Under the pieces are notes generated by a model. The model ran no database searches and was not told where the DNA came from. It saw only the letters and a list, made by a program, of their open reading frames with translations. Made by a program: the position numbers and the translations under genes. 33,578 bases of DNA from an uncultured Methanomassiliicoccales archaeon (lineage in GTDB: Archaea > Thermoplasmatota > Thermoplasmata > RBG-16-68-12): assembly GCA_964546105.1 (NCBI GenBank), contig CAZJIP010000004.1:3633-37210 (forward strand). Reading direction: 5' to 3'. Shown one piece after another: positions 3,072 through 28,689 of the stretch (position 1 is its first letter; each line of letters starts with the position of its first letter).

Positions 3072-4091
3072 CTAGGGGATGACGAGTTGCCGGCCCATGA
3101 CGGTGCCCGCCTCGAGCCTCGCGAGAGCCTCGTTGACCTGCTCAAGCCGGAGGCGGTCTCCGACGACCGGCTCGAGCCGGATCTTCCCCGCACGCACCAT
3201 CTGTAGGATGGCGGGGTAGTCCGTCGACCGACATCCCAAGGAACCCACGACGGACATTTCCCGGAACATCACGCGGTGGACCGCGAAGTTCCATGTCTCC
3301 TCGCTGTAGCCCACCGTGACCAACGTGCCCCCGGGGCGGACGGATCCGAATGCCTGGTCCAGCACCTGCGGCTTTCCGACGATTTCGAAGGCCGTGTCGA
3401 CACCGCCTCCGGTCATCTTCCGGATCGCCTTCGGCACGTCACCTTCCTTGGGGTTGAGCGCCTCCCTCGCGCCGAGCTCCCGTGCCAGGGCCAGCTTCTT
3501 CGGATCGATATCCACCGCGATGACCGTCGCGCCAAGTGCCGCGGCAATCTGGACCGCGTTGATCCCAACGCCCCCGCAACCGAAGATCGCGACCCAATCG
3601 CCGCCCTGGACATGGCCGCGGTTCCGGACCGCGTGAAAGGGCGTCGATACGGCATCCGAGATGACGGCGCTCTCCTGAAGCGGGAGTCCCTCCGGGAGCG
3701 GGATGAGGCCGCGGGCGGGGACCTTCAGGAACTCCGCGAACCCGCCGTCCGCGTGGTTGCCCGGCATGACCATCCGATCGCAGAGGTTGTCCCGTCCCCG
3801 CCGGCAGTTCAGGCAATCCCCGCACGAGAGGACCGCAGGGACGAGCACGGTCTGTCCGGGGGCCACAGACGCGACGCCTGGGGCGACGGCCTCGACCCAT
3901 CCTGAGACCTCGTGGCCGAGGATGAGCGGCGGCTTCTTGAAGGTCGGCGTCCCGTGCAGGTAGTGCAGGTCCGTCGCGCACACCCCGCAGGCCGCCACCT
4001 TGATGAGGGCGTCTCCGGCGACGAGCGTGGGCGTCTCGACCTCCTCAATCGTCAACGGCTTCCCGGGGCCTTGAAAGACGGCCGCCTTCAA
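3072..4091 (-). CDS. had: 6-hydroxycyclohex-1-ene-1-carbonyl-CoA dehydrogenase (Zn-dependent MDR alcohol dehydrogenase)
   Basis: Motifs ACGVCATD, LGHE, CGDCLNCRRGRDNLC, MPGNHADGGFA and GCGGVG. The true start is TTG at 4091, overlapping the oah stop (TTGA). The track's 426-aa version is over-extended. Confidence 0.82.
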   Translation of the reverse strand: MKAAVFQGPGKPLTIEEVETPTLVAGDALIKVAACGVCATDLHYLHGTPTFKKPPLILGHEVSGWVEAVAPGVASVAPGQTVLVPAVLSCGDCLNCRRGRDNLCDRMVMPGNHADGGFAEFLKVPARGLIPLPEGLPLQESAVISDAVSTPFHAVRNRGHVQGGDWVAIFGCGGVGINAVQIAAALGATVIAVDIDPKKLALARELGAREALNPKEGDVPKAIRKMTGGGVDTAFEIVGKPQVLDQAFGSVRPGGTLVTVGYSEETWNFAVHRVMFREMSVVGSLGCRSTDYPAILQMVRAGKIRLEPVVGDRLRLEQVNEALARLEAGTVMGRQLVIP

Positions 4092-10324: not shown

Positions 10325-10762
10325 GCTTCCCGGTCTCCTCGTCCGCAATCACGTGGAGATGTCTTAGGCTTATCGAAATCTCGGTGACGCGCAAGCCGGG
10401 GTTCATTCCCTCCCGCGGCTGGGCGGAACTCCTTCCATTCCCACACGTCGACCCACCCAAGACGAGAAAGCGCTCGTTCCCGGGAGGGGTCTCGAGGGGC
10501 CGAGGGAAAGGGATGTCAGGGCGGACCTGAGACCATCGGTCCGCGAGCGGCAGGGCGGGAGGATTTCCTCCCGCGTCAGGGGCGCTGCTCAATCTATACC
10601 CCATCGACCGGCAACCATCCTTCGCTTCGCGGTAGGGACAATCATGCCACGCTCCGTGGACGGACCCTCGGGGCCCCTGACCCAACCCTGCGCAATCACG
10701 GGGAAGGGGAGGATTCAAGTCCCCCCACGACGTTGACGGTGGCCAGGGGAAGCGGGGCCGTT

Positions 10763-12073
10763 ATGGAGGACGAGCGCCTCGTCCACAACTACATTGTCGA
10801 GCGGGGCCTGGCGGCGAACTTCCCCGCAGAGGTCCTCATCTGGGACGAGACCATGCGGGATGGGGAGCAAACCCCGGGCGTGGCCTTCTCCCCGGAGGAG
10901 AAGCTCCAGATCGCGACCCTCCTGGACGAGATGGGCGTGCCTCTGATGGACGTGGGGATTCCGGTGGTGTCCAAGGAGGAGGCCCGCGGGGTGAAGACGA
11001 TCGCCCATGCCGGACTCGACGCGTCGATCATGGCCGCGGCGCGCGCGGTCCGAAAGGACGTCGAGGCATGCATCGAGTGTGAGGTGGACGAAGTCTCCGT
11101 CTTCATTGCCTGCTCCGATCTGCACCTGAAGTACAAGCTCAATATGACGCACGAGCAGGTCAAAGAGGCCGCCGTGCGGGAGACGGAATACGCGAAGGAT
11201 CACGGCCTCAAGGTGTCCTTCGTCACGGAGGACACATTCCGAGCGGACATCGACTACGTCGTCGAGCTGTACAACGCCTGCATCGAGGCCGGTGCGAGCC
11301 GCGCCGTGCTCTGCGACACCGTCGGGGTGATGACGCCCGCAGGGATTCGGTGGTTCATGGAGCAGGTCAAGCCGCGGTTCCACAAGGTCCAGCTCTCCTT
11401 CCACGGCCACAACGACTTCGGCCTCGCAGTGGCCAACAGCCTCGCCGCGATTGAGGCTGGCGTCGAAGTGCCGCACACGTGCGTGAACGGCCTTGGCGAG
11501 CGCTCCGGGAACGCCAGCTTTGAGGAGCTCGTCATGGCCCTCGAATCCCTCTACGGATACAGGACGGGCGTGGACGTGTCGCGCATGTACGAGGTCTCGA
11601 GGCTCGTTGAGAACCTCAGCGGCATCCCCGTCGGCGTGAACAAGGCCGTCGTTGGCTACAACGCCTTCAGCCACGAGTCCGGCATCCATGCGGACGGCGT
11701 GATCAAGCACACCGCGACGTACGAGCCCATTCAGCCCGAGCGGATCGGACGGACACGACAGTTCATCTATGGGAAACACACCGGCTCAGCCTCGGTCGCG
11801 GAGAGACTGAAGTCGAGGGGCGTCGAAGCGTCCAGCGAGCAAGTCCAGAACCTCGTGCAGCTCATCAAGGAATATTCGGAGGGGAAGTCCAAGATAGATG
11901 CCCAGGCGTTCATCGAGCTGTTCCGGGAGCGGGAGGAGCGCCGTCGCGGAATTACCGAGGATGAGTTCTGGGTCTTGACGAAGCGCGCCGGCATCCCTCT
12001 GCCGAAAGGGATAGAACCGGCCTTCCCGAGGTATGACCTCAGACTGCCAAAGCGCCCCGGGTCCTTGTCTTAG
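10763..12073 (+). CDS. DRE-TIM metallolyase of the homocitrate/isopropylmalate/citramalate synthase family, lacking the C-terminal regulatory domain
   Basis: Motifs DETMRDGEQTPG, LCDTVG, HGHNDFGLA, NGLGERSGNA, HESGIH and GKHTG. Start taken as the ATG at 10763. Confidence 0.88.
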   Translation: MEDERLVHNYIVERGLAANFPAEVLIWDETMRDGEQTPGVAFSPEEKLQIATLLDEMGVPLMDVGIPVVSKEEARGVKTIAHAGLDASIMAAARAVRKDVEACIECEVDEVSVFIACSDLHLKYKLNMTHEQVKEAAVRETEYAKDHGLKVSFVTEDTFRADIDYVVELYNACIEAGASRAVLCDTVGVMTPAGIRWFMEQVKPRFHKVQLSFHGHNDFGLAVANSLAAIEAGVEVPHTCVNGLGERSGNASFEELVMALESLYGYRTGVDVSRMYEVSRLVENLSGIPVGVNKAVVGYNAFSHESGIHADGVIKHTATYEPIQPERIGRTRQFIYGKHTGSASVAERLKSRGVEASSEQVQNLVQLIKEYSEGKSKIDAQAFIELFREREERRRGITEDEFWVLTKRAGIPLPKGIEPAFPRYDLRLPKRPGSLS

Positions 12074-16067: not shown

Positions 16068-16445
16068 TCATTGCAGCAACTCAATCCAGATCCCATCGGG
16101 GTCCTTGACGTAGACCTCCGTGTCCTTGGAGTCCGCCGGACTCACCGCGACGTCCACGCCCTTCCGGGTCAGTTCGCGATAGGCCTTCCGCACGTCGTCC
16201 ACGACGAAGGCCAGGTGGTCCATCTCCTCTCCGACCCGGTAGGGTGTGTAGAACCGGCTGCTCTCCGGGTACCAGTTCAACTCGAGCCGCTGCTGAGAAC
16301 CGGGGGTGCGCAGATGCACGTACCGGCCTCCATGAGGCATGGTCCCCTCGCCGATGACCCGCATGCCTAATACGTCCGTGTAGAAAGCCCGGGAGCGTTC
16401 CAAGTCGCGGACCCGGATTCCCGTATAGTGGGACTTGGCTCGCAT
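16068..16445 (-). CDS. VOC/glyoxalase family protein
   Basis: Motifs IRVRDLERSRAFYTDVLGM, LELNWY, DHLAFVVDDV and VKDPDGIWIEL. Start reassigned to the ATG at 16445. Confidence 0.9.
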   Translation of the reverse strand: MRAKSHYTGIRVRDLERSRAFYTDVLGMRVIGEGTMPHGGRYVHLRTPGSQQRLELNWYPESSRFYTPYRVGEEMDHLAFVVDDVRKAYRELTRKGVDVAVSPADSKDTEVYVKDPDGIWIELLQ

Positions 16446-16507
16446 GGAGCCGCCATGGGGGTACCCCACGATAGCCGAGATGCCGCCGAAGGACGGGGAA
16501 GCAGGGT

Positions 16508-17116
16508 TCAGGCCTTCGCGGACGCGGCGATGGGCTCCTCGAGGACGGAGCGCAACGCCTTGCGGAGCTCGCGGTAGCACTTCAGGAAGTTCTCGAACTC
16601 CTTGTCCGAGATCGTCATGAGATGGACGTACTCTAGGAGTTCCTGCTTGGCCAGGTAGCTCACATCCTCGAGCTCGTTGATGCGCTCGGTCCAGGGAGAA
16701 TGCGCGTCGGGTTCCTTCATGCGCTTGATGAGGTCGACGACCTGGGAGACCACGCCCGAGTCAACCTTCGCCTTGAAGCCCAGCTTGGTGAGCGCGCCGA
16801 GCGCTTCGCGGACCTCTTCCTCCAGGACCTTCGCGCCGCCCGACTCGCCGTGCGCGAGGTGGAACATCTCCGCCGTCGCCTGGTAGTACGTCTCGATGAA
16901 GTGATCCACGCGCTCCTCCCGCGCAATCTCCACCATGTCGGCGTCCTTCAGCTTCCGGATGTGGTGGTAGATGGCCTGAGGTGTCAGCTTGAGTTCCTCC
17001 GCAATCTGCGCGACGGTCATCTCCCGAGCCCGGAGGAGGTAGATGATTCGCCGGCGCGTCTCGTCTGCGAGGAGCTGGAAGGCCTCCGGGTCCTTGATTA
17101 CCTTGAACGACCGCAT
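16508..17116 (-). CDS. ArsR-family winged-HTH transcription regulator (archaeal type)
   Basis: IKDPEAFQLLADETRRRII...EMTVAQIAEELKLTPQAIYHHIRKL. Confidence 0.9.
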   Translation of the reverse strand: MRSFKVIKDPEAFQLLADETRRRIIYLLRAREMTVAQIAEELKLTPQAIYHHIRKLKDADMVEIAREERVDHFIETYYQATAEMFHLAHGESGGAKVLEEEVREALGALTKLGFKAKVDSGVVSQVVDLIKRMKEPDAHSPWTERINELEDVSYLAKQELLEYVHLMTISDKEFENFLKCYRELRKALRSVLEEPIAASAKA

Positions 17117-17937: not shown

Positions 17938-18753
17938 TCAGGGTCTCGCGAACGCCGGAGTCGCCCTCGGATTCCCGTACGAGAAATCCTCGAGGTCCCT
18001 CCGGGGGACAGGGGCCACGATCCGCGACACCATCCCATGCAGGGAGTACGGGAGGCGAATGAGCCGCATCTCCCCCGACGTGACCCATTCGTCCAAGGCA
18101 AACCGCTTCCCGTACCGCCGCGCGATCCGCGTCCGCTCGCCCTTGGTCAGGGCGTAGGCATCCGCATCGAGCACGTGCACGTGGAAACCGCGACCCGAGT
18201 AGACCACGGACAGCTGGGACCACTCGCGCGACAGGAGATCGTGGAGTTCGGCGGCCTGTCGCCGCGTCTCCTCGAACTCCCAATCGCAGAAGGACAGCCC
18301 CTGATGGCGGCGCATCTTCTCCTCAATGTCCCCGTGGATCGGGCAGTCCAGGTTCTCGGGATCCAGATCGAAGGCGAGCTCCTGCCCCCGGAGCCACCGA
18401 CTGCGCCAGGGATGAGCGTAGTCCAGGCCGGCCCGCCGTGCCTGCTCGACCGACGCGTACGCGTTCCGGTCGTAGTAGACGCCCTCGGGCAGGTACTTCA
18501 GCAGATAGGGCCGGAGGTCCCGGACGGTCCGGGCGTCCTCGACGAGGAGGGAGATGTTCTTCAACGAGCGATACCGGCGGGGATAGATGCCCGAGTGGCG
18601 GCCGAGGATGAGGGCGAAGATCCGCTCGCCCGGAAAGGAAGCGAACCATCGCTCCGCGGCCTCATAGTCCATGAGCCGTGCGTAGAACCGCCGCCGCTGC
18701 GCGAGGTTGGAAGCCCGAAGGCCGTCGGGAAGTTCGTATCGGACCCGGACCAC
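17938..18753 (-). CDS. Archaeo-eukaryotic primase small-subunit-like protein (PriS-like AEP), stand-alone
   Basis: AEP motifs QELAFDLD (I), VYSGRGFHVHV (II) and RLIRLPYSLHG, with a CPIH...SFC putative zinc knuckle. Only 271 aa, with no priL adjacent. Confidence 0.82.
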   Translation of the reverse strand: MVRVRYELPDGLRASNLAQRRRFYARLMDYEAAERWFASFPGERIFALILGRHSGIYPRRYRSLKNISLLVEDARTVRDLRPYLLKYLPEGVYYDRNAYASVEQARRAGLDYAHPWRSRWLRGQELAFDLDPENLDCPIHGDIEEKMRRHQGLSFCDWEFEETRRQAAELHDLLSREWSQLSVVYSGRGFHVHVLDADAYALTKGERTRIARRYGKRFALDEWVTSGEMRLIRLPYSLHGMVSRIVAPVPRRDLEDFSYGNPRATPAFARP

Positions 18754-18898: not shown

Positions 18899-19333
18899 AT
18901 GGGATTGCCCGGCTTCGTGGCCTCCGTGGTATCCGGCATTACCGCCGCGGCGGGCTGGGTCTCCCATCGCATCCATTCCTTCAGCGTCACCCCACGCACA
19001 TGGACCTGCCTCGAGTGCCAAGTCCCCAACGAGCTCGATCGGGACACGTGCTGGAGCTGCGGCGCCGGCTACGGGGAAGATCCCCTCTATCCGAGCCACA
19101 TCCCTTTGAACCGCCGCTGGATCTGCCCGTCCTGCGCGGTGTGGAACGGGATCGCCCGAACGGACTGCTGGCGCTGCGGAAGCCTCCGAACAGACCCGCT
19201 TTTGCCATGTCCCCCTAGTGCAGCTCAGGTGCCTCTTCCAGGAAGTCCCGTTCCCGCAGCTCGCGGCGCTTCCAGCCCTCGAGCTCCCCCACGAAGTAGG
19301 GAAGGAGCCGCAACGAGACGTAGGAATTCATGA
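18899..19333 (+). CDS. Protein with two RanBP2-type (NZF) zinc fingers
   Basis: WTCLECQVPNELDRDTCWSC and WICPSCAVWNGIARTDCWRC both fit W-x-C-x2-C-x3-N-x6-C-x2-C exactly. The 3' end overlaps the convergent gene by 119 nt. Confidence 0.75.
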   Translation: MGLPGFVASVVSGITAAAGWVSHRIHSFSVTPRTWTCLECQVPNELDRDTCWSCGAGYGEDPLYPSHIPLNRRWICPSCAVWNGIARTDCWRCGSLRTDPLLPCPPSAAQVPLPGSPVPAARGASSPRAPPRSREGAATRRRNS

Positions 19334-19484
19334 GTGGGATTCCGAGCTGCTCCGAGAAGACGAGGAGATTGACCGCATCGTTGTACCGGAACCGGAGCTT
19401 CATCTGCTCCGAGTAGATGTCGTAGAAGAACAGGCCCCAGAATGATTCCTTCAAGATCCGGACCACCTGTCCCCAGCGGTTCAC
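19215..19484 (-). CDS. Small CstA/ArsA-associated protein ('cory-CC-star'-like), paralog 2, 89 aa
   Basis: GTG start at 19484 with a GAGGGGG RBS and AAACCTTTAT upstream. LLVFSEQLGIP..SYVSLRLLPY...WKRR..RERDF aligns without gaps to the ORF at 22743. Confidence 0.8.
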   Translation of the reverse strand: MNRWGQVVRILKESFWGLFFYDIYSEQMKLRFRYNDAVNLLVFSEQLGIPLMNSYVSLRLLPYFVGELEGWKRRELRERDFLEEAPELH

Positions 19485-19581
19485 AGGCCCCCTCGCACCG
19501 CCATGGGGTCGCGGCGCCGGATAAAGGTTTGGGCCGGCCGGGAAGCGAGCCTTTAGAGGGGGTTCCGGCTGTTCCGGGAAC

Positions 19582-20217
19582 GTGGTTGCCGTCGACCCCG
19601 ACCTCCTAGCTGTATTCGTCGTCGCGGGGGTCCTCATCGCCTGGTACCTCGTCGGCAGCATACGGAACCGACGTCTGGCTCGGCGAATCGCCAACGAGAT
19701 GCGGGACAGCCTGCTGGCCCTCGGCGGCACGTCGAAGGTTCATCCGTTCGGCACGACCGCGTTCCGGATGACGACGCAGGATGCGAAACCGCCCTTCCGC
19801 GACATCTCGGTCGTCGTGACCCTGCTGCCGCGGGAAATGCCCTTCAACTGGGCTATCGGGATCGCGCAGGGCCGCCGCGACACGGCGGTCGTGGAAGCCT
19901 CCCTCCGCCGATCGCCCCGGGCCGGATTCGAACTCGTGGACCCTGGGAGTCGCGTCGGCCGGAGGCGCAAGCGGGCGGTTTCCACTTGGTCCGCCATCAC
20001 CGTCGCGGGACTGGAGCGTCTCCTGCGCGCCAAGGACGAGAGGACCGCGAAGGCCCTGCTCGAGGCCCTCGAGCCGAGCGCCCTAGCGGCCATTTCGGCT
20101 CTCCATGTGACCGCAGGGAGCGAGCCCGGCATCGCGGCTTCCCTCGCCCTCGAGCAGGGCAACGTCTCGATGCTGATGTCGGCCATCCAGGGCCTCGCCG
20201 AACGCATGGCCGTCTAG
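19582..20217 (+). CDS. N-terminally membrane-anchored hypothetical protein, possible remote DUF1682/CCDC47 homolog
   Basis: TM segment LLAVFVVAGVLIAWYLVG followed by SIRNRRLARRI, then an alpha/beta domain with VVVTLLPREMPFNWAIGIAQGRRDTAVV. Confidence 0.8.
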   Translation: MVAVDPDLLAVFVVAGVLIAWYLVGSIRNRRLARRIANEMRDSLLALGGTSKVHPFGTTAFRMTTQDAKPPFRDISVVVTLLPREMPFNWAIGIAQGRRDTAVVEASLRRSPRAGFELVDPGSRVGRRRKRAVSTWSAITVAGLERLLRAKDERTAKALLEALEPSALAAISALHVTAGSEPGIAASLALEQGNVSMLMSAIQGLAERMAV

Positions 20218-20702
20218 TGACAACGGCTTCCCGCCAGCGCAGGGGGGAGCTCATCGAGCCCCGACGCATCCCCGCTGGCCATGAACTTCATCGTCAAGTT
20301 GCGCTGGGTCTCCTCGCAGCGATACGCAACATAGACCACCCGGAGGTGCTTGTTCCGGAAGAGGCCCGCCCGCATCCCGCCGTGGAGGAGAGAGCCGGGA
20401 TGACCGCCGACCTTGAAGGAGCTCTCCCGGGCGCCCTCGAGGAGGGGAGGACGGAGGGCTCCCCTCGCCGCGCGCACGTCGAACTCCATCGCGCGCTTCG
20501 CACTCTCGTCGATGAGGAACGCCGTGGCTTGCCCCTGCTGGGCCCACCGCACGCCGTTGTACGCGATCGTGTAGTCGATCTCGGTGGGGTTGCGTCCGAT
20601 GCGCACGTCCCAGTTCCCGGGAAGGCGGAGCACGAGGAAGTTGGTTGGCCCCAGGACGAAATGGGTGGCCGCCAGGAGGTGGTCCCGAACGGCCTCCGTC
20701 AT
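20214..20702 (-). CDS. Conserved-looking hypothetical soluble protein, 162 aa
   Basis: True start is the ATG at 20702 (MTEAVRDH), in ATGA overlap with the ATPase stop. Beta-rich pattern, YRCEET motif and C-terminal RCH. Confidence 0.78.
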   Translation of the reverse strand: MTEAVRDHLLAATHFVLGPTNFLVLRLPGNWDVRIGRNPTEIDYTIAYNGVRWAQQGQATAFLIDESAKRAMEFDVRAARGALRPPLLEGARESSFKVGGHPGSLLHGGMRAGLFRNKHLRVVYVAYRCEETQRNLTMKFMASGDASGLDELPPALAGSRCH

Positions 20703-21733
20703 GCCACAGCCGCCGGCGCCGGGGCGAAGGCCGGCACGTAGTCCATCATGTCGTGCGACACCCGGGCCACCATGTCGGTACCGGTGACCTCGGAGGGGTA
20801 CAGGGGGATGTAGGCCGCTACGAGGGGGCCGAGGTCTCGATAGAGCAGCTGCATGTACCCGAGCTGTTCCTGGTACTTGTTCGCCAGGTACTCTCCCGCC
20901 CCCTCCATCTGCGCGACCTCCGGACGGAGGATCTCGTTCACAATCACGCCGCCGACCGGGATGTTGAACTTCCCGACCATCCCGATGAATCGGCGGACGA
21001 CCGCAATCGGCAAGCCCAGGGGGAGGGTCACGAAGAAGAACGCCGTGCGTTCGGGGTCGATCAGGATCTCCTTCGCCTTCATGAACCGCTCGTTCATAGA
21101 GATCAGGTCGGCCATGAGCGGGTCCTTCTTGACCTCCTCCATCATCCGTTCCTTGCGGAACGAGAGCTGGACCCGGAGGGAGAGGGCCTCCCGGCGCGAA
21201 TCGATCATCCGGTTGAGCCAGAGCCCGTAAATCTTGCTCAGCCCGATCAGTCGGACGGCGTTCGCGACCGCGGCGGTGTCGAAGATCACGCGGTCGTACG
21301 ACTCCCCCTCCGCGAGGATGTAGTCCACCATCCGATCGAACATGGCGCTTTCTTCGAAGGCGGGGTTCGTCGTCGCGATCTCGATGAAGGGTCGGGCATC
21401 CAGGGGGATGTCCGCCCACTTGAGGAACTCCTTCACGCGGCCCTTGATGGAGTCGCGATACTTCTCGACGACCTCGGTCGTCTCCACCTCGACCGCGTGG
21501 ACGCCGTTCGCCCCCTTCACGGGACGGACCCGGCCGCCGGAGAGGTCCTGGCCGAACAGGCTCGACAGCGAGTGGACCGGATTCAGCGATGCCAGGAGGA
21601 CCTTCTCCCCGCTCGACGCGTAGTGGTAGGCGAGGCCTGCTGCGGAGACCGTCTTGCCGACGCCCCCCTTGCCGCCCGTGAAGATGTACCGCAACTTCGG
21701 CCGTTCGCGCAACAGGTCGGTTAGCTTAGTCAT
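20699..21733 (-). CDS. Get3/TRC40/ArsA-family ATPase 2 (degenerate switch motifs)
   Basis: Deviant Walker A GKGGVGKT, switch I SLNPVHSL, switch II FDTAAVAN and VIVN. Start ATG at 21733 with a GAGGTG RBS. Confidence 0.9.
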   Translation of the reverse strand: MTKLTDLLRERPKLRYIFTGGKGGVGKTVSAAGLAYHYASSGEKVLLASLNPVHSLSSLFGQDLSGGRVRPVKGANGVHAVEVETTEVVEKYRDSIKGRVKEFLKWADIPLDARPFIEIATTNPAFEESAMFDRMVDYILAEGESYDRVIFDTAAVANAVRLIGLSKIYGLWLNRMIDSRREALSLRVQLSFRKERMMEEVKKDPLMADLISMNERFMKAKEILIDPERTAFFFVTLPLGLPIAVVRRFIGMVGKFNIPVGGVIVNEILRPEVAQMEGAGEYLANKYQEQLGYMQLLYRDLGPLVAAYIPLYPSEVTGTDMVARVSHDMMDYVPAFAPAPAAVA

Positions 21734-21744
21734 GCTCCCCCACC

Positions 21745-22734
21745 TCACAGGCCCGGACCGTGCATGAGGTCCTCGGAGACGCGGGCGATCATGTCGAGGC
21801 CACGTGGCTCCCGGGGGTACATCGGGAGGACGGCCACCACCTTGGAACCGAATTTGGACTTGATCACGTCCATGTACTTCTGCTGCATCTCGGCGCGGTT
21901 CCGGAGAAACGCCGCGGCCTCGCCCTTCGCCGCGAGGAGTTCTGGCGGGTAGACCTGGTTCACGATGAGACCGGCCATTTGCAGGCCGAGGGAATCGAAC
22001 ATCTGCAGGGCGCGCTCCGTGTCCAAGATGGCCATCCTCTCGGGGATCAGGACCATGAAGAACGCGGTGCGCTTCTGGTCGACCATGAGGTCCGTGAAGC
22101 GGGTGATCTTGCTCTGGATGTCGCCGAGCTCCCGCAGCACCTCGTCCTCGGAGACCTTCTGCCCCTTGAGGGTGGCGGCCACGGCCTCATACTCCTGCGC
22201 CTTCTCGCGCGCCTCGGTGATTTTGCCGACCCACTTGCTGAGGATCTCCGCCATGGCGATCATCCGGACGCCGTGGCCGAACGGCGGCATGTCGAAGACG
22301 TAGAGGTCATGGCCGCTCGTTGACACGAGGTCCGCCATCGCGTCGTAGGTGGCCGACTCGTACATCGCTGGCTCCGCGGACGTGGAGTCGATGTATTCCT
22401 CGATCTCCGGCGGCAGCTCCGAGAGGCCGTACATCGTGAGGATCTTCTGCTTGACCTCAGCCTGGTAGTCTGCGACCCGCTTGTCCGCATCGATCTCGAC
22501 CACGTCGAGGTTCGGGATCACGGTCACCTGTCCCTTGCCGAAGATGTCCCGGTCGAAGATGTCGCTCAGGCTCGCCTGCGGGTCCGTCGAGAAGCAGAGG
22601 ACCTTCTGATGCCGCTTGGCGGCCATGTAGTGGCTCAGCCCGGCGCTGCAGGTCGTCTTGCCGAGCCCTCCTTTTCCGGCGAAGATGACGATGCCCTTGT
22701 CTCCCTTCTTCTCGAAGTAGGATGCGAGGCCCAT
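21745..22734 (-). CDS. Get3/TRC40/ArsA-family ATPase 1
   Basis: Motifs GKGGLGKTT, STDPQASLSD, FDMPPFGH, VLIPERMA and LIVNQV. Met-rich. Start ATG at 22734. Confidence 0.92.
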   Translation of the reverse strand: MGLASYFEKKGDKGIVIFAGKGGLGKTTCSAGLSHYMAAKRHQKVLCFSTDPQASLSDIFDRDIFGKGQVTVIPNLDVVEIDADKRVADYQAEVKQKILTMYGLSELPPEIEEYIDSTSAEPAMYESATYDAMADLVSTSGHDLYVFDMPPFGHGVRMIAMAEILSKWVGKITEAREKAQEYEAVAATLKGQKVSEDEVLRELGDIQSKITRFTDLMVDQKRTAFFMVLIPERMAILDTERALQMFDSLGLQMAGLIVNQVYPPELLAAKGEAAAFLRNRAEMQQKYMDVIKSKFGSKVVAVLPMYPREPRGLDMIARVSEDLMHGPGL

Positions 22735-22742
22735 CGACTCCC

Positions 22743-23033
22743 TCAAAAGACCTGGTCCGTGAAGTCCCGCTCGCGGAACACGCGCTGCTTCCAGCTCTTG
22801 ATGTTCGGCACCGCGTACGGCAGGATCCGGAGCGAGTAGTACGGCGGGATGACGGGGACGCCGAGCATGTCGCCGAGGGTGATGAACATGAAGAGGTGCT
22901 CCAGGTACATTCGGGTTCTCAGTGCTGCGGTTACGTGGCCGTGGGCCGCCATTCCGTACAGCACACCCTTCGCGGCGGTCGCGACCTTCCGACCCCGACC
23001 CTTCGACCTGCCGCGCCCCTTCGAATCAGACAT
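22743..23033 (-). CDS. Small CstA/ArsA-associated protein ('cory-CC-star'-like), paralog 1
   Basis: EHLFMFITLGDMLGVPVIPPYYSLRILPY...WKQRVFRERDF. Lies between cstA and the ATPases. Alternative start at 23054. A GAAAGCTTTTT promoter-like box is at about 23073-23083 (minus strand). Confidence 0.82.
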   Translation of the reverse strand: MSDSKGRGRSKGRGRKVATAAKGVLYGMAAHGHVTAALRTRMYLEHLFMFITLGDMLGVPVIPPYYSLRILPYAVPNIKSWKQRVFRERDFTDQVF

Positions 23034-23096
23034 CTGGCGACCGCTCCCTGTCATGGGATGCGTGCCTGGCTCAAAAAGCTTTCAGGCAGACGCTGA

Positions 23097-24902
23097 CTAC
23101 TTCTCCGGCGTGCCTCCGTCCGCTGCCGCCGGCGCCTTCGCCCGGGCCGCCGCCAAGCTCGTGCGGTAGCTCTGGAACAGGCGGAACGCCATCAACAGCC
23201 CGATCAAGAACAGGATCGCGCCAACGGCGACGAACACCGCGTTGACCGTCAGAGCGGCCCATGCGTAGGCCGAGACGTTGATCGGGGCCCGTACGTTGCG
23301 CAAGATCCAGTTGACCGGATCCGGCCTCGCCGCGGAGAACCGGACGCCCCCGAGGTAGTTCGCCACCGAATAGAGGAATGAGTACGTCTGCCAGAGCAAC
23401 GCCGCGAGGGTCGTCACGATCATGAAGATGGCTGGGATCAGCGAGTACCGCGAGGGAGCACGCGCCCGCGTGAGGTGAATCGTGATCAGCATGATCGCAA
23501 GGCCTGCGAGGAGCTGATTCGCTCCGCCGAAGTACAACCACAGGGCCCACCAGCTACCCGAGATCGCGAAGAGCCAGGGCACCACGAGCCCTACGATCGT
23601 GGACGTGTGCTTGTTCGCAAGGATGCGGAACCGGCCCTCGCTCCAAGTTTCCTGGGCGACCAATCGGAAGAAACGGGTGACCAACGCCTGGACGGTGATC
23701 GCGTAGATCACGAGGACGAGCCCGAAGAACGTCGTCAGCACGGCATTCGTCAAGCCGCCAAGGAAAGGGCTGGTGAGCGCCACGGCGCCGTTGACCCAGG
23801 AGAAGAAGTTCGCCCTCGCCGGGTCCAACACGAAGCTCGGAGCGAGCACCATGTAGGCGGCCAGGGAGGCCAGCGCGAGGAGGCCCTCGGAGAGCATGGC
23901 TCCACCGCCGACGGGCAAGGCATCGGTTTCGATGTCGAGCTGCTTCGACGACGAGGAGCTGCTGACCAGACTGTGCCAGCCCGAGATCGAGCCGCAGGCG
24001 ATGGCGACGAAGAGGATGGGCCACAGGGGTCCGATCGTGCTGTCGAAGAACGTCGTGAAGGCGGGCAACTGAACCGTCAGGTTGGTGAACGGCGACACGA
24101 GGGCACCGATCAAGATGAAGATAATGGCCGCGTACGCCGGGTAGAACGCGAGGTAGTTCGTCGGCTGGATGAAGCTCGGCGTTGGGAGGACGGCGGCCAA
24201 GTACAGGAACCCGAGGACGACCGCGGCCCAAATCGCGACGTTCCAAGCGCCGTAGGAGAGCGAAACCGGGAACAGGACACCCAAGTAGATGCTGAGTACC
24301 ACGAGGAGCAGCCCGATCCCCGTCACGGCGAAGACGTTCACCTTGTAGCGGTAGAGGAGCTGGCCACAGAGCACACCGGCCGCGAAGATCCCGAGCGTGG
24401 CGACGAACGTGCCAGGGAAGAGGTTCCAGAATGTGGCAATCAGCGCGATGAAGGTGGCCGAGATGATGATGAGGTAGAACAGGACGAAAGCGAGCAGGTT
24501 CCGTCGGCCCGAGGCCCCCGTGAACTCGTAGGTGATGGGGCCGAAGGAGCGACCCTCGTTGCGCACCGACAGCATCATCGCACCGTAGTCCTGCATCCAC
24601 CCGATGAAGAAATTCCCGCCAATGATCCACAGGAGCGCGGGAAGCCAACCGAACGTGACCCCAATGAACGGTCCAAGGATCGGGCCCAAAGCCGCGACGC
24701 TCTTGAACTGGTATCCCCAGAGCACGTAGCGACTCACCGGGAAGAACTCCACCCCATCCATGTACATGTGCGCGGGAGTCGCCCGCTTCGCGTCGCTCTT
24801 CCACACATGGCGGTCAACCCACTTGCCGTAGCCCATGTACGCGATCAGGTAGGCCACGATCGTGACGACAACCCACAGAAACGGCGTGTCCAGTAGGCCC
24901 AT
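23097..24902 (-). CDS. cstA: Carbon starvation CstA family membrane transporter (divergent)
   Basis: Motifs TPAHMYMDGVEFFP, GPILGP, FGWLPALLWI, PLWPILFVAIACGSISGWHSL, GGAMLSEG and FGGANQLLA, with many TM helices. Start ATG at 24902 with a GGGAGG RBS. Confidence 0.92.
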   Translation of the reverse strand: MGLLDTPFLWVVVTIVAYLIAYMGYGKWVDRHVWKSDAKRATPAHMYMDGVEFFPVSRYVLWGYQFKSVAALGPILGPFIGVTFGWLPALLWIIGGNFFIGWMQDYGAMMLSVRNEGRSFGPITYEFTGASGRRNLLAFVLFYLIIISATFIALIATFWNLFPGTFVATLGIFAAGVLCGQLLYRYKVNVFAVTGIGLLLVVLSIYLGVLFPVSLSYGAWNVAIWAAVVLGFLYLAAVLPTPSFIQPTNYLAFYPAYAAIIFILIGALVSPFTNLTVQLPAFTTFFDSTIGPLWPILFVAIACGSISGWHSLVSSSSSSKQLDIETDALPVGGGAMLSEGLLALASLAAYMVLAPSFVLDPARANFFSWVNGAVALTSPFLGGLTNAVLTTFFGLVLVIYAITVQALVTRFFRLVAQETWSEGRFRILANKHTSTIVGLVVPWLFAISGSWWALWLYFGGANQLLAGLAIMLITIHLTRARAPSRYSLIPAIFMIVTTLAALLWQTYSFLYSVANYLGGVRFSAARPDPVNWILRNVRAPINVSAYAWAALTVNAVFVAVGAILFLIGLLMAFRLFQSYRTSLAAARAKAPAAADGGTPEK

Positions 24903-25036
24903 CTTTCGCCTCCCCAATCCCGGCGAGACATCCCTGCCAGGACCCGCCGGGGTATGTCGTGTCAGGCGCTTAAATCTGTGGGGTGTGATTTACCGCGAAC
25001 GAAATCCGTATGGCGCGAGACCGCCTTGGAGGCTAC

Positions 25037-25432
25037 GTGAACCCCGAACCGGTGAGGGTGCAAATGCTCGGCCTCCTGCCCGCCGTCCTCAAGCCTTGCG
25101 GACCGGCCTGCGCCCAGCCGTTCATGCAGCGGCCCGTGGAGCGACTCTCCTCGGAGGAGATAGAAGAGACCCCGTCCTTCGTCCGGGAGAACGGCGAAAG
25201 GGCCCACGCCTTCGCGGAGCGGCTCGTCCGAGACTTCGGAGCGGGGGTGCGGATCGAAGTCGTGGGCCTGGACTCCCCGCGCGGGGTCTGGCTCGGGGCG
25301 CGGCACCGGATCGGAAGGGGTTTCGCCGTCATCGTCGACGGACGGACGGTCGTCCGCAATCCTCAGGAGTACGAAACCCTCCGGGTCGCCGTGGAGAAGG
25401 CCCTTCAAAGCTCGATAACGGGATCAGGATGA
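25037..25432 (+). CDS. Hypothetical thioredoxin-fold-like protein with CxxxC motif
   Basis: GTG start after GGAGG. CGPAC near the N-terminus, then L..DFG..VRIEVVGLDSPRG and AVIVDGR. Divergent from cstA. Confidence 0.72.
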   Translation: MNPEPVRVQMLGLLPAVLKPCGPACAQPFMQRPVERLSSEEIEETPSFVRENGERAHAFAERLVRDFGAGVRIEVVGLDSPRGVWLGARHRIGRGFAVIVDGRTVVRNPQEYETLRVAVEKALQSSITGSG

Positions 25433-25550: not shown

Positions 25551-26183
25551 TCAGGCGCCTACCACGGTGACCGTACCCATCATGAAGCCCGGGGTGGACA
25601 TCGCCGCGGCGTCACACTGGGCCATGCAGTGCCAGACGTACTGCCCCGTAGACGTGAAGACCACGGTGAAGCTCACCACGCTGGGCGTCTGGCCCACCGC
25701 GGCCGGGATCGGGACGTTGATGTTGTACGGCGCCGCGTCCAGGGTGAACGTGTGGGCCACCTGGTCTGCCGGCACGGAGGTCAGCGACCGTCCGCTCACC
25801 GTGGCGTTCGTGAGGGTCTCCGTCCCGCCCACGGTCCCAGTCACCTGGTTGAACCCGGAGGGGATCGCGTTCGAGCCGTTGTCGTAGTTCGTGATCGTGA
25901 TGATCACGGGGACGTTCGCGGGGACGGTGAAGTTCGCCGGAAAGTATTGGTCCAGGCCCGTGTACGGGTCGAACGCGACGGTCAGATACAGATGCTCCGT
26001 GCCCGAGGTCGTCACCACGGGCGGGGCCGTCACGTGGCCGAGAATCCCGCCGGCGAGCAGCCCGAAGACGAGGAGGACTGCTCCCATCATCACGACCGCG
26101 CCTGACCGCATGGGCCGTCGTCCCTTGGCTCGCCGGCCCAGCACCGCTTCCCTTGTTGTTGTCTCGCTTCCTACTGCGCTCAT
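25551..26183 (-). CDS. Membrane-anchored cupredoxin-domain protein (atypical copper site)
   Basis: Basic N-terminus plus TM, PANFTVPANVPVIITITNYD, AHTFT and GQYVWHCMAQCDAAAMSTPGFMMGTVTV. Alternative start at 26111. Confidence 0.78.
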   Translation of the reverse strand: MSAVGSETTTREAVLGRRAKGRRPMRSGAVVMMGAVLLVFGLLAGGILGHVTAPPVVTTSGTEHLYLTVAFDPYTGLDQYFPANFTVPANVPVIITITNYDNGSNAIPSGFNQVTGTVGGTETLTNATVSGRSLTSVPADQVAHTFTLDAAPYNINVPIPAAVGQTPSVVSFTVVFTSTGQYVWHCMAQCDAAAMSTPGFMMGTVTVVGA

Positions 26184-26353: not shown

Positions 26354-27220
26354 ATGGGCGACGGGTACGGATGCCAGGACATGGTCGGACGCCTGCGGCG
26401 CGTCATTGTCCGGCGTCCGGACGCGAGCTTCGCCCAAGCCGATCCGCGGCTGTGGCACTACACGGCGCGTCCGCGCCTCGCCGCGGCGCGGCGTGAACAC
26501 GAGCTCTTCGTCGAGATCCTCCGGAAATCCGGCGCCGAGATCCTCGAACACGACGTGCCCCAGCCCGGGCGTGCCGATGCGGTGTTCGTCCACGATCCGG
26601 CCCTCGTCACGGACGAGGGCGCGGTCCTGCTCCGGATGGGGAAGGCGCTCCGCCGAGGAGAAGAAGACAGCCTGGGGGCCGCATTTGAGCGATTCGGCGT
26701 CCCCATCCTCGGCCACCTGACGGGCGAGGCCACCGCCGAGGGAGGCGATCTCCTGTGGCTCGACCACGACACGCTCGCGGTAGGGCAGGGATTCCGCACC
26801 AATGCGGAGGGCTCCGCCCAGTTGGAGCGCATCCTGCGGCCGCTGGGAGTTCGCCTCGTCCCCGTGTCCCTCCCGTACTTCGAGGGACCCGAGGCCTGCC
26901 TCCACCTCATGTCCTTAATCAGTCTCTTCGACCGCGACCTCGCCGTGGTGTATCCGCGCTTCCTGCCCGTCCCGTTCTCCCGGGAGCTGCGGGAGCGGGG
27001 CATCGATTGGATCGAGGTCCCCGATGCGGAGTTCGCGACCATGGGTCCGAACGTGCTGGCCCTCGCCCCGCGCGACGTCGTGGCCCTACGCGGGAATCCG
27101 GTCACGAAACGCCGCCTGGCGGCCATGGGGTGCCGCGTCCAGACGTATCGCGGGGAGGAAATCTCCCTGAAGGCCGAAGGCGGCCCGACGTGCCTGACGC
27201 GCCCCGTGCTCCGCAGATGA
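26354..27220 (+). CDS. Amidinotransferase / dimethylargininase / arginine deiminase (pentein) family protein
   Basis: Motifs DAVFVHD, RRGEE, AEGGD, RTN, LHL and C-terminal GGPTCLTRP with the catalytic Cys. Confidence 0.9.
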   Translation: MGDGYGCQDMVGRLRRVIVRRPDASFAQADPRLWHYTARPRLAAARREHELFVEILRKSGAEILEHDVPQPGRADAVFVHDPALVTDEGAVLLRMGKALRRGEEDSLGAAFERFGVPILGHLTGEATAEGGDLLWLDHDTLAVGQGFRTNAEGSAQLERILRPLGVRLVPVSLPYFEGPEACLHLMSLISLFDRDLAVVYPRFLPVPFSRELRERGIDWIEVPDAEFATMGPNVLALAPRDVVALRGNPVTKRRLAAMGCRVQTYRGEEISLKAEGGPTCLTRPVLRR

Positions 27221-27227
27221 GTCGGAG

Positions 27228-27689
27228 TCACGACGCGACGACGGACGCCTTCGTGATGACCACGTCCTTCAGCGGGCGGTCCTGGCGGTTCCGGGGCGCT
27301 CGGCTGATTGCGTCCGCGACGTCCATTCCCGCGACGACCTTGCCGAACACGGGATGCTTCGGGTCCAGGCGTCCGTTGTCCACCACGTTGATGAAGAACT
27401 GGCTCCCGCCCGTGTTGGGACCCGCGTTGGCCATGGAGATCGTCCCGCGGCCGTTGTGGTTCGTCGGGGTGAACTCGTCCTTGATCGTGTATCCCGGCCC
27501 GCCCATGCCCGTCCCCGTCGGGTCGCCTCCCTGGATCATAAAGCTCGGAATGATCCGGTGGAAGACCACGCCGTTGTAGAAGCCCTTCTCCACGAGCCTG
27601 CGGAAGTTGCCTGCGGTGATAGGCATGGTGTCCTCGAACAGCTGGATGCGGATGTCGCCCAGGGTGGTCTGGAGCAGAATCTCGCTCAT
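27228..27689 (-). CDS. Cyclophilin-type peptidyl-prolyl isomerase
   Basis: Motifs FYNGVVFHRIIPSFMIQGGDPTGTG, SMANAGPNTGGSQFFI and HPVFGKV. Confidence 0.96.
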   Translation of the reverse strand: MSEILLQTTLGDIRIQLFEDTMPITAGNFRRLVEKGFYNGVVFHRIIPSFMIQGGDPTGTGMGGPGYTIKDEFTPTNHNGRGTISMANAGPNTGGSQFFINVVDNGRLDPKHPVFGKVVAGMDVADAISRAPRNRQDRPLKDVVITKASVVAS

Positions 27690-27801: not shown

Positions 27802-28689
27802 GTGCACCCGAAGCTTCGCGTGGCCGCCCTGTCCATCGGATCCAACGCAAGCCTCGTCGCCGTGGAGCTGACCCTCGCCTGGGTCACGGGGAGCCTCGCG
27901 GTCCTCGCGGACGCGTTTCACTCCGGGGTCGACCTCACGGGCTCCCTGGTCGCTCTGTCCGGGATCCTGCTGGCCCTCCGGGGCGCGGATGCGAACCACG
28001 GCTACGGCTACTCCCGGTACGAGAACGCCGCGGCCCTCGTCCAGATGATCCTCATCGCAATCATCGGGGTCACGGTCATCGAGGAAGCGGTGCGCCGCCT
28101 CCTGGAGGGATTCACGGTCCACGTCACACTCCTCGCCTTGGTCGCCGTCTTGGCCACCCTGGTCTTTGACGTGGTCCTGTTCCGCTACATCTCCCGTCGC
28201 GGCAGCGTGCTCGGGAGCTCGGCCCTCGAGGCGGACGCCTACCACTTCGGCACGGACGCGGTCGGGAAGGTCGGCGTCCTCTTCGGGATCGGGATGGCCT
28301 ACCTGGGATATCCCGTGATGGACGTCGTGGGCGCGCTGATCATCGCGGGCGTCTTCCTCCTCACCGCGTTCCGCATGGGCCGCAAAAACCTCCAGGTTCT
28401 CGTCGACGCGTCTCCGCCCGCGGACCTCCTGGCTCAAGTGCGGATGGCTGCCGAGCAGGTGGCTGGCGTGGCAGAGGTCCACAGCCTCCGGGGCCGGATG
28501 TCGGGCCGGCTCGTCTTCGTGGACCTGGCCGTCCACGTGGCGCCCGGCGCCACCCTGGAATCTGCCCACGGCATCGCGCATACGATCGAGCGGACCGTAC
28601 AACAACAGGTGCCCAACGTGGCGGAGGTTGTGGTCCACGTCGAGCCGGACCGCCACGAGCCTGCCCTGGACGAGGCACATCCCGCCTGA
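27802..28689 (+). CDS. Cation diffusion facilitator (FieF-like) transporter
   Basis: Motifs GSLAVLADAFHSGVD, HGYGYSRYE, ADAYHFGTD and a C-terminal dimerisation domain (VHVEP). Confidence 0.94.
   Translation: MHPKLRVAALSIGSNASLVAVELTLAWVTGSLAVLADAFHSGVDLTGSLVALSGILLALRGADANHGYGYSRYENAAALVQMILIAIIGVTVIEEAVRRLLEGFTVHVTLLALVAVLATLVFDVVLFRYISRRGSVLGSSALEADAYHFGTDAVGKVGVLFGIGMAYLGYPVMDVVGALIIAGVFLLTAFRMGRKNLQVLVDASPPADLLAQVRMAAEQVAGVAEVHSLRGRMSGRLVFVDLAVHVAPGATLESAHGIAHTIERTVQQQVPNVAEVVVHVEPDRHEPALDEAHPA

Follow-up and report, generated by a model that had tools for sequence, protein, structure and literature searches.

Organisation of the locus

The stretch of DNA considered here, called the window throughout (33,578 nucleotides, positions 3,633 to 37,210 of contig CAZJIP010000004.1 in assembly GCA_964546105.1), belongs to an uncultured Methanomassiliicoccales archaeon and carries at 19215-25432 a block of eight genes, among them a CstA-family permease gene and two genes for ATPases of the Get3/ArsA class. 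The contig is archaeal with 65% G+C. All genes named in a preliminary description of this DNA were found where it had placed them, and inspection of the junctions bore out the short-gap or overlapping run it had reported from cstA onwards. Five genes follow each other on the minus strand with gaps of 8-42 nucleotides or an ATGA overlap. The first is cstA (23097-24917), which encodes a CstA-family permease of 606 residues (PF02554, E 1.1e-101) and is the sole copy found in the assembly. It is followed after 42 nucleotides by the gene for small protein 1 (22743-23054), a CstX-like protein of 103 residues (DUF7990/PF25952) with a very strongly conserved core of about 75 residues. ATPase 1 (21745-22746, 333 residues) is a Get3/ArsA-class P-loop ATPase with complete catalytic motifs; its likely ATG start at 22734 lies 8 nucleotides from the stop codon of small protein 1 and is preceded by GAGGGAG. 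ATPase 2 (20699-21748, 349 residues) has an intact P-loop and degenerate switch I and switch II, and its likely ATG at 21733 lies 11 nucleotides from the ATPase 1 stop codon with GGTGGGGGAG upstream. The run closes with p162 (20214-20702), a 162-residue protein predicted to be cytosolic and all-beta with a Mog1/PsbP-like fold, whose start shares an ATGA with the stop of ATPase 2. On the plus strand, p211 (19582-20217; 211 residues, an N-terminal transmembrane (TM) helix and then a cytosolic alpha/beta domain; probably CstY) is convergent with p162, the stop codons overlapping by 4 nucleotides. Small protein 2 (19215-19484, minus strand), a diverged paralogue of small protein 1 with 89 residues when read from the GTG that we chose at 19484, is divergent from p211. 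At the other end, X (25010-25432, plus strand), a Cys-motif protein of 140 residues, is divergent from cstA across a spacer of 92 nucleotides. The composition of two ATPases and two small paralogues given in the preliminary description is therefore correct.

Linkage and gene order across genomes

A scan for small protein 1 with one genome per species gave 112 relatives; from these the 80 best loci were retained, and their open reading frames (ORFs) were called and searched with profiles built from the window proteins. Loci in which small protein 1 has no less than 5 kb of sequence on its left and 5.5 kb on its right are referred to as well-flanked (n=26). It may be noted that the loci were picked by similarity to small protein 1, so that the counts describe this subfamily and not every CstA cluster. 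Among the archaea the locus labels cover Thermoplasmata, Methanomassiliicoccales, Geothermarchaeales, Bathyarchaeia, Korarchaeota-type and other Thermoproteota, and Thor-, Hermod- and Promethearchaeota; among the bacteria they cover Bacillota (Symbiobacterium, Thermaerobacter), Chloroflexota, Thermodesulfobacteriota and Terriglobia. Loci related to that of the window are from metagenome-assembled genomes (MAGs) labelled Thermoplasmata or 'Methanobacteriota archaeon'.

We found cstA, at least two small proteins, both ATPases, p162 and p211 together in 25 of the 26 well-flanked loci, the exception (L052) having a lone small gene. X was present in 13 of the 26, in Thermoplasmata, Chloroflexota, Bacillota and one unclassified bacterial MAG, and was undetected in the Bathyarchaeia and Asgard loci of this set. 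Hence, of the eight-gene unit first proposed, seven genes are constant and X is only a frequent eighth. The arrangement recurs in six loci from relatives and across 80 loci of two domains. The gene order in the six relatives is identical save in L018, from another family of the order, where all eight genes are present with small protein 2 between ATPase 2 and p162. In most of the 80 loci, small protein 1 comes immediately before ATPase 1 and ATPase 2; it is separated from ATPase 1 by X and a second small gene in L056, L067 and L070. Gene order and strands vary by phylum among Thermoplasmata, Bacillota, Chloroflexota, Bathyarchaeia and Asgard archaea, and the position of small protein 2 varies likewise. 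As the genes stay linked although order and strand have been shuffled between phyla, the linkage is kept by selection rather than by inherited order. The arrangement is not due to chance. That the block is a single functional unit, as had been supposed, is strongly supported by the co-occurrence of its seven core genes, and the accessory genes do keep company with cstA and the ATPases in archaea and bacteria alike.

Distribution and transfer of the module

Within the order, small protein 1 was found in 14 of 41 genomes, which include the window genome and 12 of the 24 other genomes of the genus; most of the 14 have a second, weaker match about 3.5 kb away, which is small protein 2. No small protein 1 was found in 400 further genomes of the phylum that are at least 80% complete (E<=1e-10). 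Get3-family genes (E<=1e-20) occur in 15 of the 41 genomes, namely the same 14 that have small protein 1 and one more (G039), and the window genome, which is 82.6% complete, has no Get3/ArsA-family gene besides ATPase 1 and ATPase 2. The lone gene of G039 (locus L099 on contig C11, 2518-3615, minus strand) is of another type and is cut by the contig end; its STDPAHS and DTAPTG motifs are canonical, and by eye its C-terminal extension resembles alpha-crystallin. A housekeeping Get pathway was rejected as the role of the module, since the module is optional and rare in the phylum.

In a quick maximum-likelihood tree of 107 ATPase sequences, from which 14 near-identical loci of the genus were omitted, ATPase 1 and ATPase 2 form two separate clades (Shimodaira-Hasegawa-like approximate likelihood ratio test, SH-aLRT, 100) with parallel internal topologies, which places the ATPase duplication before the spread of the module. 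In both clades the Thermoplasmata and Methanomassiliicoccales sequences group with bacteria (SH-aLRT 99-100), apart from Bathyarchaeia, Asgard archaea and other Thermoproteota. The tree thus indicates that the seven genes travel as a module, also between domains, and on this evidence the module behaves as a patchy unit that can be transferred between them. The module is also found in a MAG labelled Mycobacterium leprae (L055), whose ATPases fall with those of Symbiobacteriaceae in the tree; the label or binning of this MAG looks wrong.

Such mobility could also be read to mean that the genes are conserved neighbours without a shared function, hitch-hiking on a mobile island. The module has clearly been transferred between domains, as this explanation would have it, but the seven genes stay together despite reshuffled order and strands, the topologies of ATPase 1 and ATPase 2 are parallel, and no integrase or transposase cluster was found among the recurrent neighbours. 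We regard hitch-hiking as highly improbable.

The ATPase pair

Both ATPases match PF02374 as single-domain proteins and score 211 (ATPase 1) and 177 bits (ATPase 2) against TIGR00345 (Get3/ArsA, cut-off 135). They are paralogues with 28% identity over 304 residues (E 1e-42). The closest solved relatives of ATPase 1 are the archaeal chains 3zq6 and 3ug6 (E about 1e-51), which were deposited as arsenical pump-driving ATPases and which we take to be archaeal Get3 homologues. Motifs were counted over the residue-bearing rows of an 80-row alignment. In ATPase 1, GKGGLGKTT is present in 77 of 77 rows, STDPQAS in 78 of 78 and DMPPFGHG in 77-78 of 78. The P-loop GKGGVGK of ATPase 2 is likewise kept (69/69), whereas in its SLNPVHS motif the catalytic Asp gives way to Asn in 68 of 69 rows (Asp in 1/69), and DTAAVANA stands in place of the DTAPTGH-type switch II in all 66 rows, with loss of the switch II Gly-His. 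The catalytic switch I Asp, which corresponds to D57 of yeast Get3 and there positions the attacking water (PMC10248533), is thus kept in ATPase 1 (78/78) and almost always replaced in ATPase 2. With the motifs of ATPase 1 complete and Asp replaced by Asn in ATPase 2, the pair looks like an asymmetric heterodimer with one hydrolytic site. Judged by its motifs, ATPase 2 is a conserved degenerate partner, which is new here. In neither ATPase does a Cys occur in the columns that are invariant or nearly so, and neither the zinc CXXC of Get3 nor an ArsA-type Cys site is conserved; the CXXC is absent from some true Get3s as well (PMC10248533).

With the ArsA-ArsB pump the module shares an ATPase of the ArsA/Get3 class, two non-equivalent nucleotide sites and genetic linkage to a secondary carrier, which the ATPase could turn into an ATP-coupled system. 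However, ArsA is one fused chain of about 590 residues while here there are two separate proteins of about 340 residues, and the scores fall far below the cut-offs of the ArsA equivalog models (79 and 76 bits against 650 for TIGR04291; 125 and 98 bits against 800 for NF041417). Also, the metalloid-binding Cys residues of ArsA have no invariant counterpart in ATPase 1 or ATPase 2, and the partner of ArsA is ArsB or Acr3, whereas the carrier here is CstA, accompanied by four or five extra subunits. The likeness to Get3/TRC40 lies in the TIGR00345 membership and, for ATPase 1, in the deviant Walker A motif and the switch I Asp. The module ATPases differ from Get3 in forming what looks like an obligate heterodimer with one degenerate site, in having no CXXC and in being tied to one permease gene, and no Get1/2-like receptor was recognised. 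BagA and BagB of Mycobacterium tuberculosis are two adjacent Get3-like ATPases that are thought to form a heterodimer; their similarity to the pair described here is confined to the N-terminal part (39-40 bits against cut-offs of 400 and 521), and the gene context differs.

CstA and the small proteins

The permease belongs to the wider Pfam CstA family, but it scores only 175 bits against NF011590, the equivalog model of E. coli CstA (cut-off 1188), and so falls outside the E. coli-type pyruvate/H+ symporters; no solved relative was found by sequence. Small protein 1 and small protein 2 are paralogues (29% identity over 83 residues, E 6e-15), and their family is Pfam DUF7990. Small protein 1 has 596 relatives, with PF25952 on 120 of the 120 matches listed. 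Among 11 diverse archaeal and bacterial sequences 45 of about 100 columns are invariant, and bacterial copies are 70-85% identical to the archaeal one. The conservation of small protein 2 is far lower. Its homologues gave chance-level Pfam matches only at E<=5, and most copies, those of Asgard and TACK loci excepted, end in a terminal His. In six Bacillota loci (L044, L045, L046, L050, L062, L066) small protein 2 has His-rich N-terminal extensions with runs of alternating His. Some Asgard loci hold three small paralogues in the cluster; in L091, L093, L096 and L098 there are two genes of the small protein 2 type in addition to small protein 1 upstream of the ATPases, and an extra gene of the small protein 1 type lies about 5 kb downstream on the opposite strand.

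The preliminary description had seen in the locus an expanded form of the CstA/cory-CC-star/ArsA-like triad. The small proteins do not fit the cory-CC-star family, as they score 33.7 and 33.0 bits against NF041419 (cut-off 80) and their C-termini (...DQVF and ...PELH) are not the Cys-Cys that the family name presumably denotes. Among the control genomes, that of Haloferax volcanii, a genetically tractable organism, matches NF041419 below the cut-off, TIGR00345 above it and Pfam CstA, and may have a related cluster; that of Corynebacterium glutamicum gave no match to the cory-CC-star model. The most hydrophobic 19-residue window (KD19) reaches 1.51 in small protein 1 and 1.09 in small protein 2, which is borderline or below for a TM helix. 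Asterix-like three-TM subunits were considered for the small proteins and rejected, the hydropathy being too low.

A further small partner of a CstA permease is YbdD of E. coli, which we take to be a DUF466 protein; no Pfam DUF466 match was obtained for small protein 2 homologues (E<=5) or for small protein 1 (E<=0.01). The E. coli pair resembles the module in having a CstA-family permease with an adjacent small protein needed for transport, CstA and YbdD being both required for constitutive pyruvate uptake and epistatic (PMC5847655), but it has no ATPase.

A closer relation is to the cst operons described by Castillo & Saier in 2010 (PMC2963123), who report 26 cases of cstA with an ArsA homologue, a protein of about 90 residues called CstX in 24 of them, a protein of about 210 residues with a single transmembrane segment called CstY in five archaea, and adjacent ATPase pairs in Pyrobaculum arsenaticum and Symbiobacterium thermophilum. 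From co-evolution trees they suggested that CstA is energised by the ArsA homologue and that CstX couples the two. These operons share with ours CstA, a small protein, the paired single-domain ArsA homologues of about 330 residues and a one-segment protein. The equation of CstX with small protein 1 (103 residues, next to cstA) and of CstY with p211 (211 residues, one TM helix) is by description only, and it is from the published description of CstY that we consider p211 to be probably CstY. According to that paper CstY is confined to five archaea and the paired-ATPase group works without it; by contrast, we find p211 homologues also in bacterial loci, including the locus of a MAG labelled Symbiobacterium thermophilum (L049). 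The locus had been put forward as undescribed, and this stands in part: the core of cstA, cstX, the ArsA homologue and, in some cases, cstY was published in 2010, while p162, the constant second small paralogue, X and the degeneracy of ATPase 2 go unreported in the accessible text of that paper. A literature search, from whose coverage subscription journals were mostly absent, gave no later work on CstX, CstY/DUF7990, cory-CC-star or CstA with ArsA/Get3.

Structural matches of p162 and p211

No Pfam or NCBIfam model matches p162. Among its 61 relatives the named ones are called 'hypothetical protein', and a Pfam domain (PF02374) is assigned to only one, of 215 residues. The structural model, built from a 32-sequence alignment, has a predicted local distance difference test (pLDDT) score of 95.1 and shows an antiparallel sheet with one helix. 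Its best VIA matches (Z 9.6-8.6) are all of the Mog1/PsbP type, namely BT_1490, Mog1, PsbP, SciW and LpqN, and models without a true match typically reach a best Z of 7-8; Foldseek values are E 1.5e-3 or weaker. A Mog1/PsbP-like fold for p162 is therefore plausible but not strong. SciW appears in the fold list together with EagT6, both of which are chaperones that hold transmembrane helices. His101, Cys129, Cys161 and His162 are invariant, and the Cys-His terminus is found in 32 of 32 sequences, a pattern that suits a metal site.

For p211 the model (pLDDT 94.8) has an N-terminal helix of 40 residues, the first 20 or so of which are the TM segment (KD19 maximum 2.41, residues 9-27), followed by an alpha/beta domain. 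The top three Foldseek matches are chains of the endoplasmic reticulum (ER) multipass translocon: 7tm3_4 (E 6.8e-8, TMq 0.72), 9i78_4 and 6w6l_7. With 7tm3_4, VIA gives Z 18.2 and a root-mean-square deviation of 2.5 over 205 of the 211 residues (chain residues 135-395), and the other two translocon chains give Z 15.6 and 11.5, the TM helix included. Next come the mycobacterial TtfA (6t84, Z 10.4, rank 4) and type III secretion chaperones (Z 7-8). From their residue range and topology we take the matched chains 4 and 7 to be CCDC47, a translocon component that has one TM segment and then a large globular cytosolic domain (PMC7505659) and is treated extensively in the publications that go with the three structures. 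An earlier guess of a CCDC47-like anchor is thus borne out by structure. Both CCDC47 and TtfA resemble the modelled p211 in topology and fold, with one TM helix and then a cytosolic alpha/beta domain; our literature search found no paper treating the two together. Unlike CCDC47, p211 has no luminal acidic region, and it ends at residue 211 after a single 17-residue helix, lacking the C-terminal coiled coil that in CCDC47 extends to the ribosome exit tunnel (PMC7505659).

Support from sequence for this kinship is weak. PF07946 (CCDC47) scores 12.9 bits on p211 (gathering score 27.7) in the TM region only, and among 33 members of the p211 family the Pfam model gives weak matches in 10, the best at E 0.0023 and all below the gathering score. 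A six-frame scan of the whole genome with this model gave a sole candidate, which lies inside p211 (E 0.27). The p211 profile has no match at E<=10 among PDB sequences, and no longer proteins were matched at E<=0.001. An exhaustive profile search gave 715 representatives at E<=1e-3; the 150 matches listed are 152-329 residues long, and none of these 150 provides a link to the eukaryotic CCDC47 of about 480 residues.

These matches bring in the main rival to a transport role, a dedicated chaperone or assembly machine in which the Get3-like pair, p211 and p162 would take charge of the many-helix CstA or of the small proteins, holding, inserting or assembling them, as a prokaryotic counterpart of the eukaryotic GET and PAT factors with CstA as client. 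The full-length match of p211 to three multipass-translocon chains, presumed to be CCDC47, and the faint Pfam CCDC47 signals in its family point in this direction, as do SciW and EagT6 in the p162 fold list and the solved relatives of ATPase 1 if these are indeed Get3 homologues; small protein 1, with its borderline hydrophobic stretch, might provide a helix of the chaperoned kind. Yet the module is optional (12 of 24 genomes in the genus, 0 of 400 elsewhere in the phylum), and six genes would be a costly provision for one non-essential permease. There is no conserved Cys for the Get3 zinc hinge, and the presumed client-groove segments of both ATPases are by eye rich in charged residues. Also, p211 lacks the C-terminal coiled coil of CCDC47, the Pfam CCDC47 matches all stay under the gathering score, and no Asterix-like three-TM partner was found by a Pfam screen that covered small protein 1 (E<=0.01) and small protein 2 homologues (E<=5), though not the other ORFs. 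We hold the chaperone reading to be possible but doubtful. In a bolder form, which we judge unlikely, the module would be a prokaryotic forerunner or relative of two eukaryotic ER biogenesis systems, an ATP-driven intramembrane chaperone or insertase for a multipass client, in which a CCDC47-like anchor, an asymmetric Get3-like pair and a beta-sheet protein holding TM helices would work together in Asgard archaea, other archaea and bacteria. If true, it would contradict the literature, where PAT components are stated to be absent from prokaryotes (PMC9630114), and would give CCDC47 a pre-eukaryotic history.

X, flanking genes and a possible metal site

X has an SPRG..WL..RHRL motif, and ten of its members gave only one chance-level Pfam match at E<=5 (EspF, E 0.12). 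The CxxxC motif earlier ascribed to it holds in part: one Cys is nearly invariant (at least 90% of 37 homologues), the second is conserved in at least 60% only.

Several other genes adjoin the cluster. A plus-strand gene at 18899-19333 encodes a protein that is hydrophobic at its N-terminus and has two zinc ribbons of the RanBP2 type (PF00641, E 7.9e-6, below the cut-off), and its 3′ end overlaps that of small protein 2, on the opposite strand, by about 119 nucleotides. It adjoins the cluster in the genus, lies upstream of X in L018, and is found next to small protein 2 in 2 of the 26 well-flanked loci. At 16508-17116 on the minus strand lies an ArsR-family helix-turn-helix regulator (PF01022, E 5.9e-15) with a long C-terminal extension. 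Five loci of the genus have this regulator, with 55-75% identity, 1-2 kb away from small protein 2; cst operons are without arsR, as Castillo & Saier stress (PMC2963123). A DUF2148/iron-sulphur (Fe-S) protein (PF09918, E 1.4e-33 for L094:3701-4333, just downstream of ATPase 2) is encoded within 4 kb of the cluster in nine loci, of which two are from Anaerolineae and seven from Asgard archaea (L094, L067, L070, L086, L091, L093, L095, L096, L098). In L086 the gene after ATPase 2 (10514-10897) encodes a protein of 127 residues that matches no Pfam family and has a CPSC motif in its C-terminal part; homologues lie near the cluster in eight further Asgard loci (Thor-, Hermod- and Promethearchaeota), and the protein is possibly a functional stand-in for X. 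The remaining neighbours in the window appear unrelated to the module: a glyoxalase-family protein (16068-16580), a primase small-subunit-like protein (17938-18753; weak, E 1.9e-7), an arginine deiminase/DDAH-like protein (26354-27220), a cyclophilin (27228-27689) and a CDF cation-efflux protein (27802-28689). An ORF of 210 residues at 25551-26183 has no Pfam match.

The Cys and His residues of the accessory proteins raise the alternative that the module handles a metal, a metalloid or a redox species. The ATPase pair would then be a metallochaperone-type NTPase (compare ArsA-ArsD, CooC, HypB and UreG), and CstA would move, or be controlled by, a metal or thiol-reactive species to which p162, X and the His-rich small protein 2 bind or which they deliver. 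The invariant His, Cys and Cys-His set of p162 (32/32), the conserved Cys pair region of X and the His residues of small protein 2, in N-terminal runs in several Bacillota and at the terminus in most copies outside Asgard and TACK, all agree with this, and so do the Fe-S protein in nine loci, the CPSC-motif protein in nine Asgard loci and the ArsR-family regulator about 2 kb off in the genus. But neither an invariant Cys nor a His-rich site occurs in the ATPases themselves, a small protein that has four Cys/His ligands most often uses them for structural zinc, and the His-rich tails occur only in some bacterial copies. The loci were not noticed to contain ars, hyp, ure or coo genes, for which no family-level search was made, and the cargo of characterised CstA-family members is pyruvate (PMC7730263; PMC5847655). 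On balance metal or redox handling seems quite unlikely.

Proposed role of the module

The reading that we favour, by analogy with known systems and with a probability that we put at roughly 0.45, is that CstA belongs to a multi-subunit permease and that an asymmetric ATPase heterodimer of the ArsA/Get3 class drives or gates it. We propose the contacts, substrate and direction of coupling as follows. CstA would sit in the membrane beside the single-pass, CCDC47/TtfA-like p211 (CstY), and at the cytosolic face the ATPase 1/ATPase 2 heterodimer would cycle with ATP, ATPase 1 hydrolysing it and ATPase 2 binding nucleotide without the catalytic Asp. The two DUF7990 small proteins of CstX type would pass the ATPase cycle on to the permease, and p162, with its Cys and His residues, would serve the ATPase pair as a regulator or as a subunit that binds a cofactor. 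In sum, a small carbon substrate would be taken up in an ATP-driven or ATP-gated way, in the manner of ArsA with ArsB. This reading is favoured by the conserved linkage and tight junctions, by the Get3-family genes that track the module, by its patchiness, by the asymmetry of the ATPases together with the lack of Cys in their invariant columns, and by precedents, among them the need of E. coli CstA for YbdD and the earlier proposal of Castillo & Saier; for p211 the precedent is TtfA, which its PDB entry titles a trehalose monomycolate transport factor. That the module is optional, mobile and self-contained, with a transporter as its only obvious effector, also argues for a role centred on transport.

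A number of observations weigh against the ATPase-driven permease. One locus in Terriglobia (L040) has small protein 1, ATPase 1, ATPase 2 and small protein 2 without cstA, p162 and p211, in a view that takes in about 7.9 kb upstream and about 1 kb past small protein 2. The CstA of the window is distant from the E. coli equivalog (175 bits against a cut-off of 1188). The best structural match of p211 is a membrane-protein biogenesis factor and not a transporter subunit, and p162 shares its predicted fold with SciW and EagT6 among others. ArsA is not known to need accessory proteins with ArsB, which leaves five extra subunits unexplained by the analogy. Finally, the Cys/His sites of p162 and X and the His-rich tails of the Bacillota small protein 2 hint at metal or redox chemistry, for which the permease reading has no use.

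What is new here is the seven-gene composition constant over two domains, the degenerate ATPase, the CCDC47-like anchor and the probable Mog1/PsbP-like Cys/His protein, and the transfer of the whole as a module between domains. Among the seven proteins there was no functional annotation for p162, p211 and the DUF7990 proteins. ATPase 2, as a naturally 'trapped' partner (Asp to Asn), may offer a clean system for the study of asymmetric Get3/ArsA dimers. The presence of p211 and Get3-like ATPases in one operon of Asgard archaea and other prokaryotes may give an experimental route to the origin of the PAT complex. CstA-family permeases are widespread and starvation-induced, they have no solved structure, and the role of their small partners is poorly understood; the module suggests that some of them may be large ATP-linked complexes. 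If so, they would join ArsAB as a second case in which a secondary carrier is coupled to an ArsA-class ATPase.

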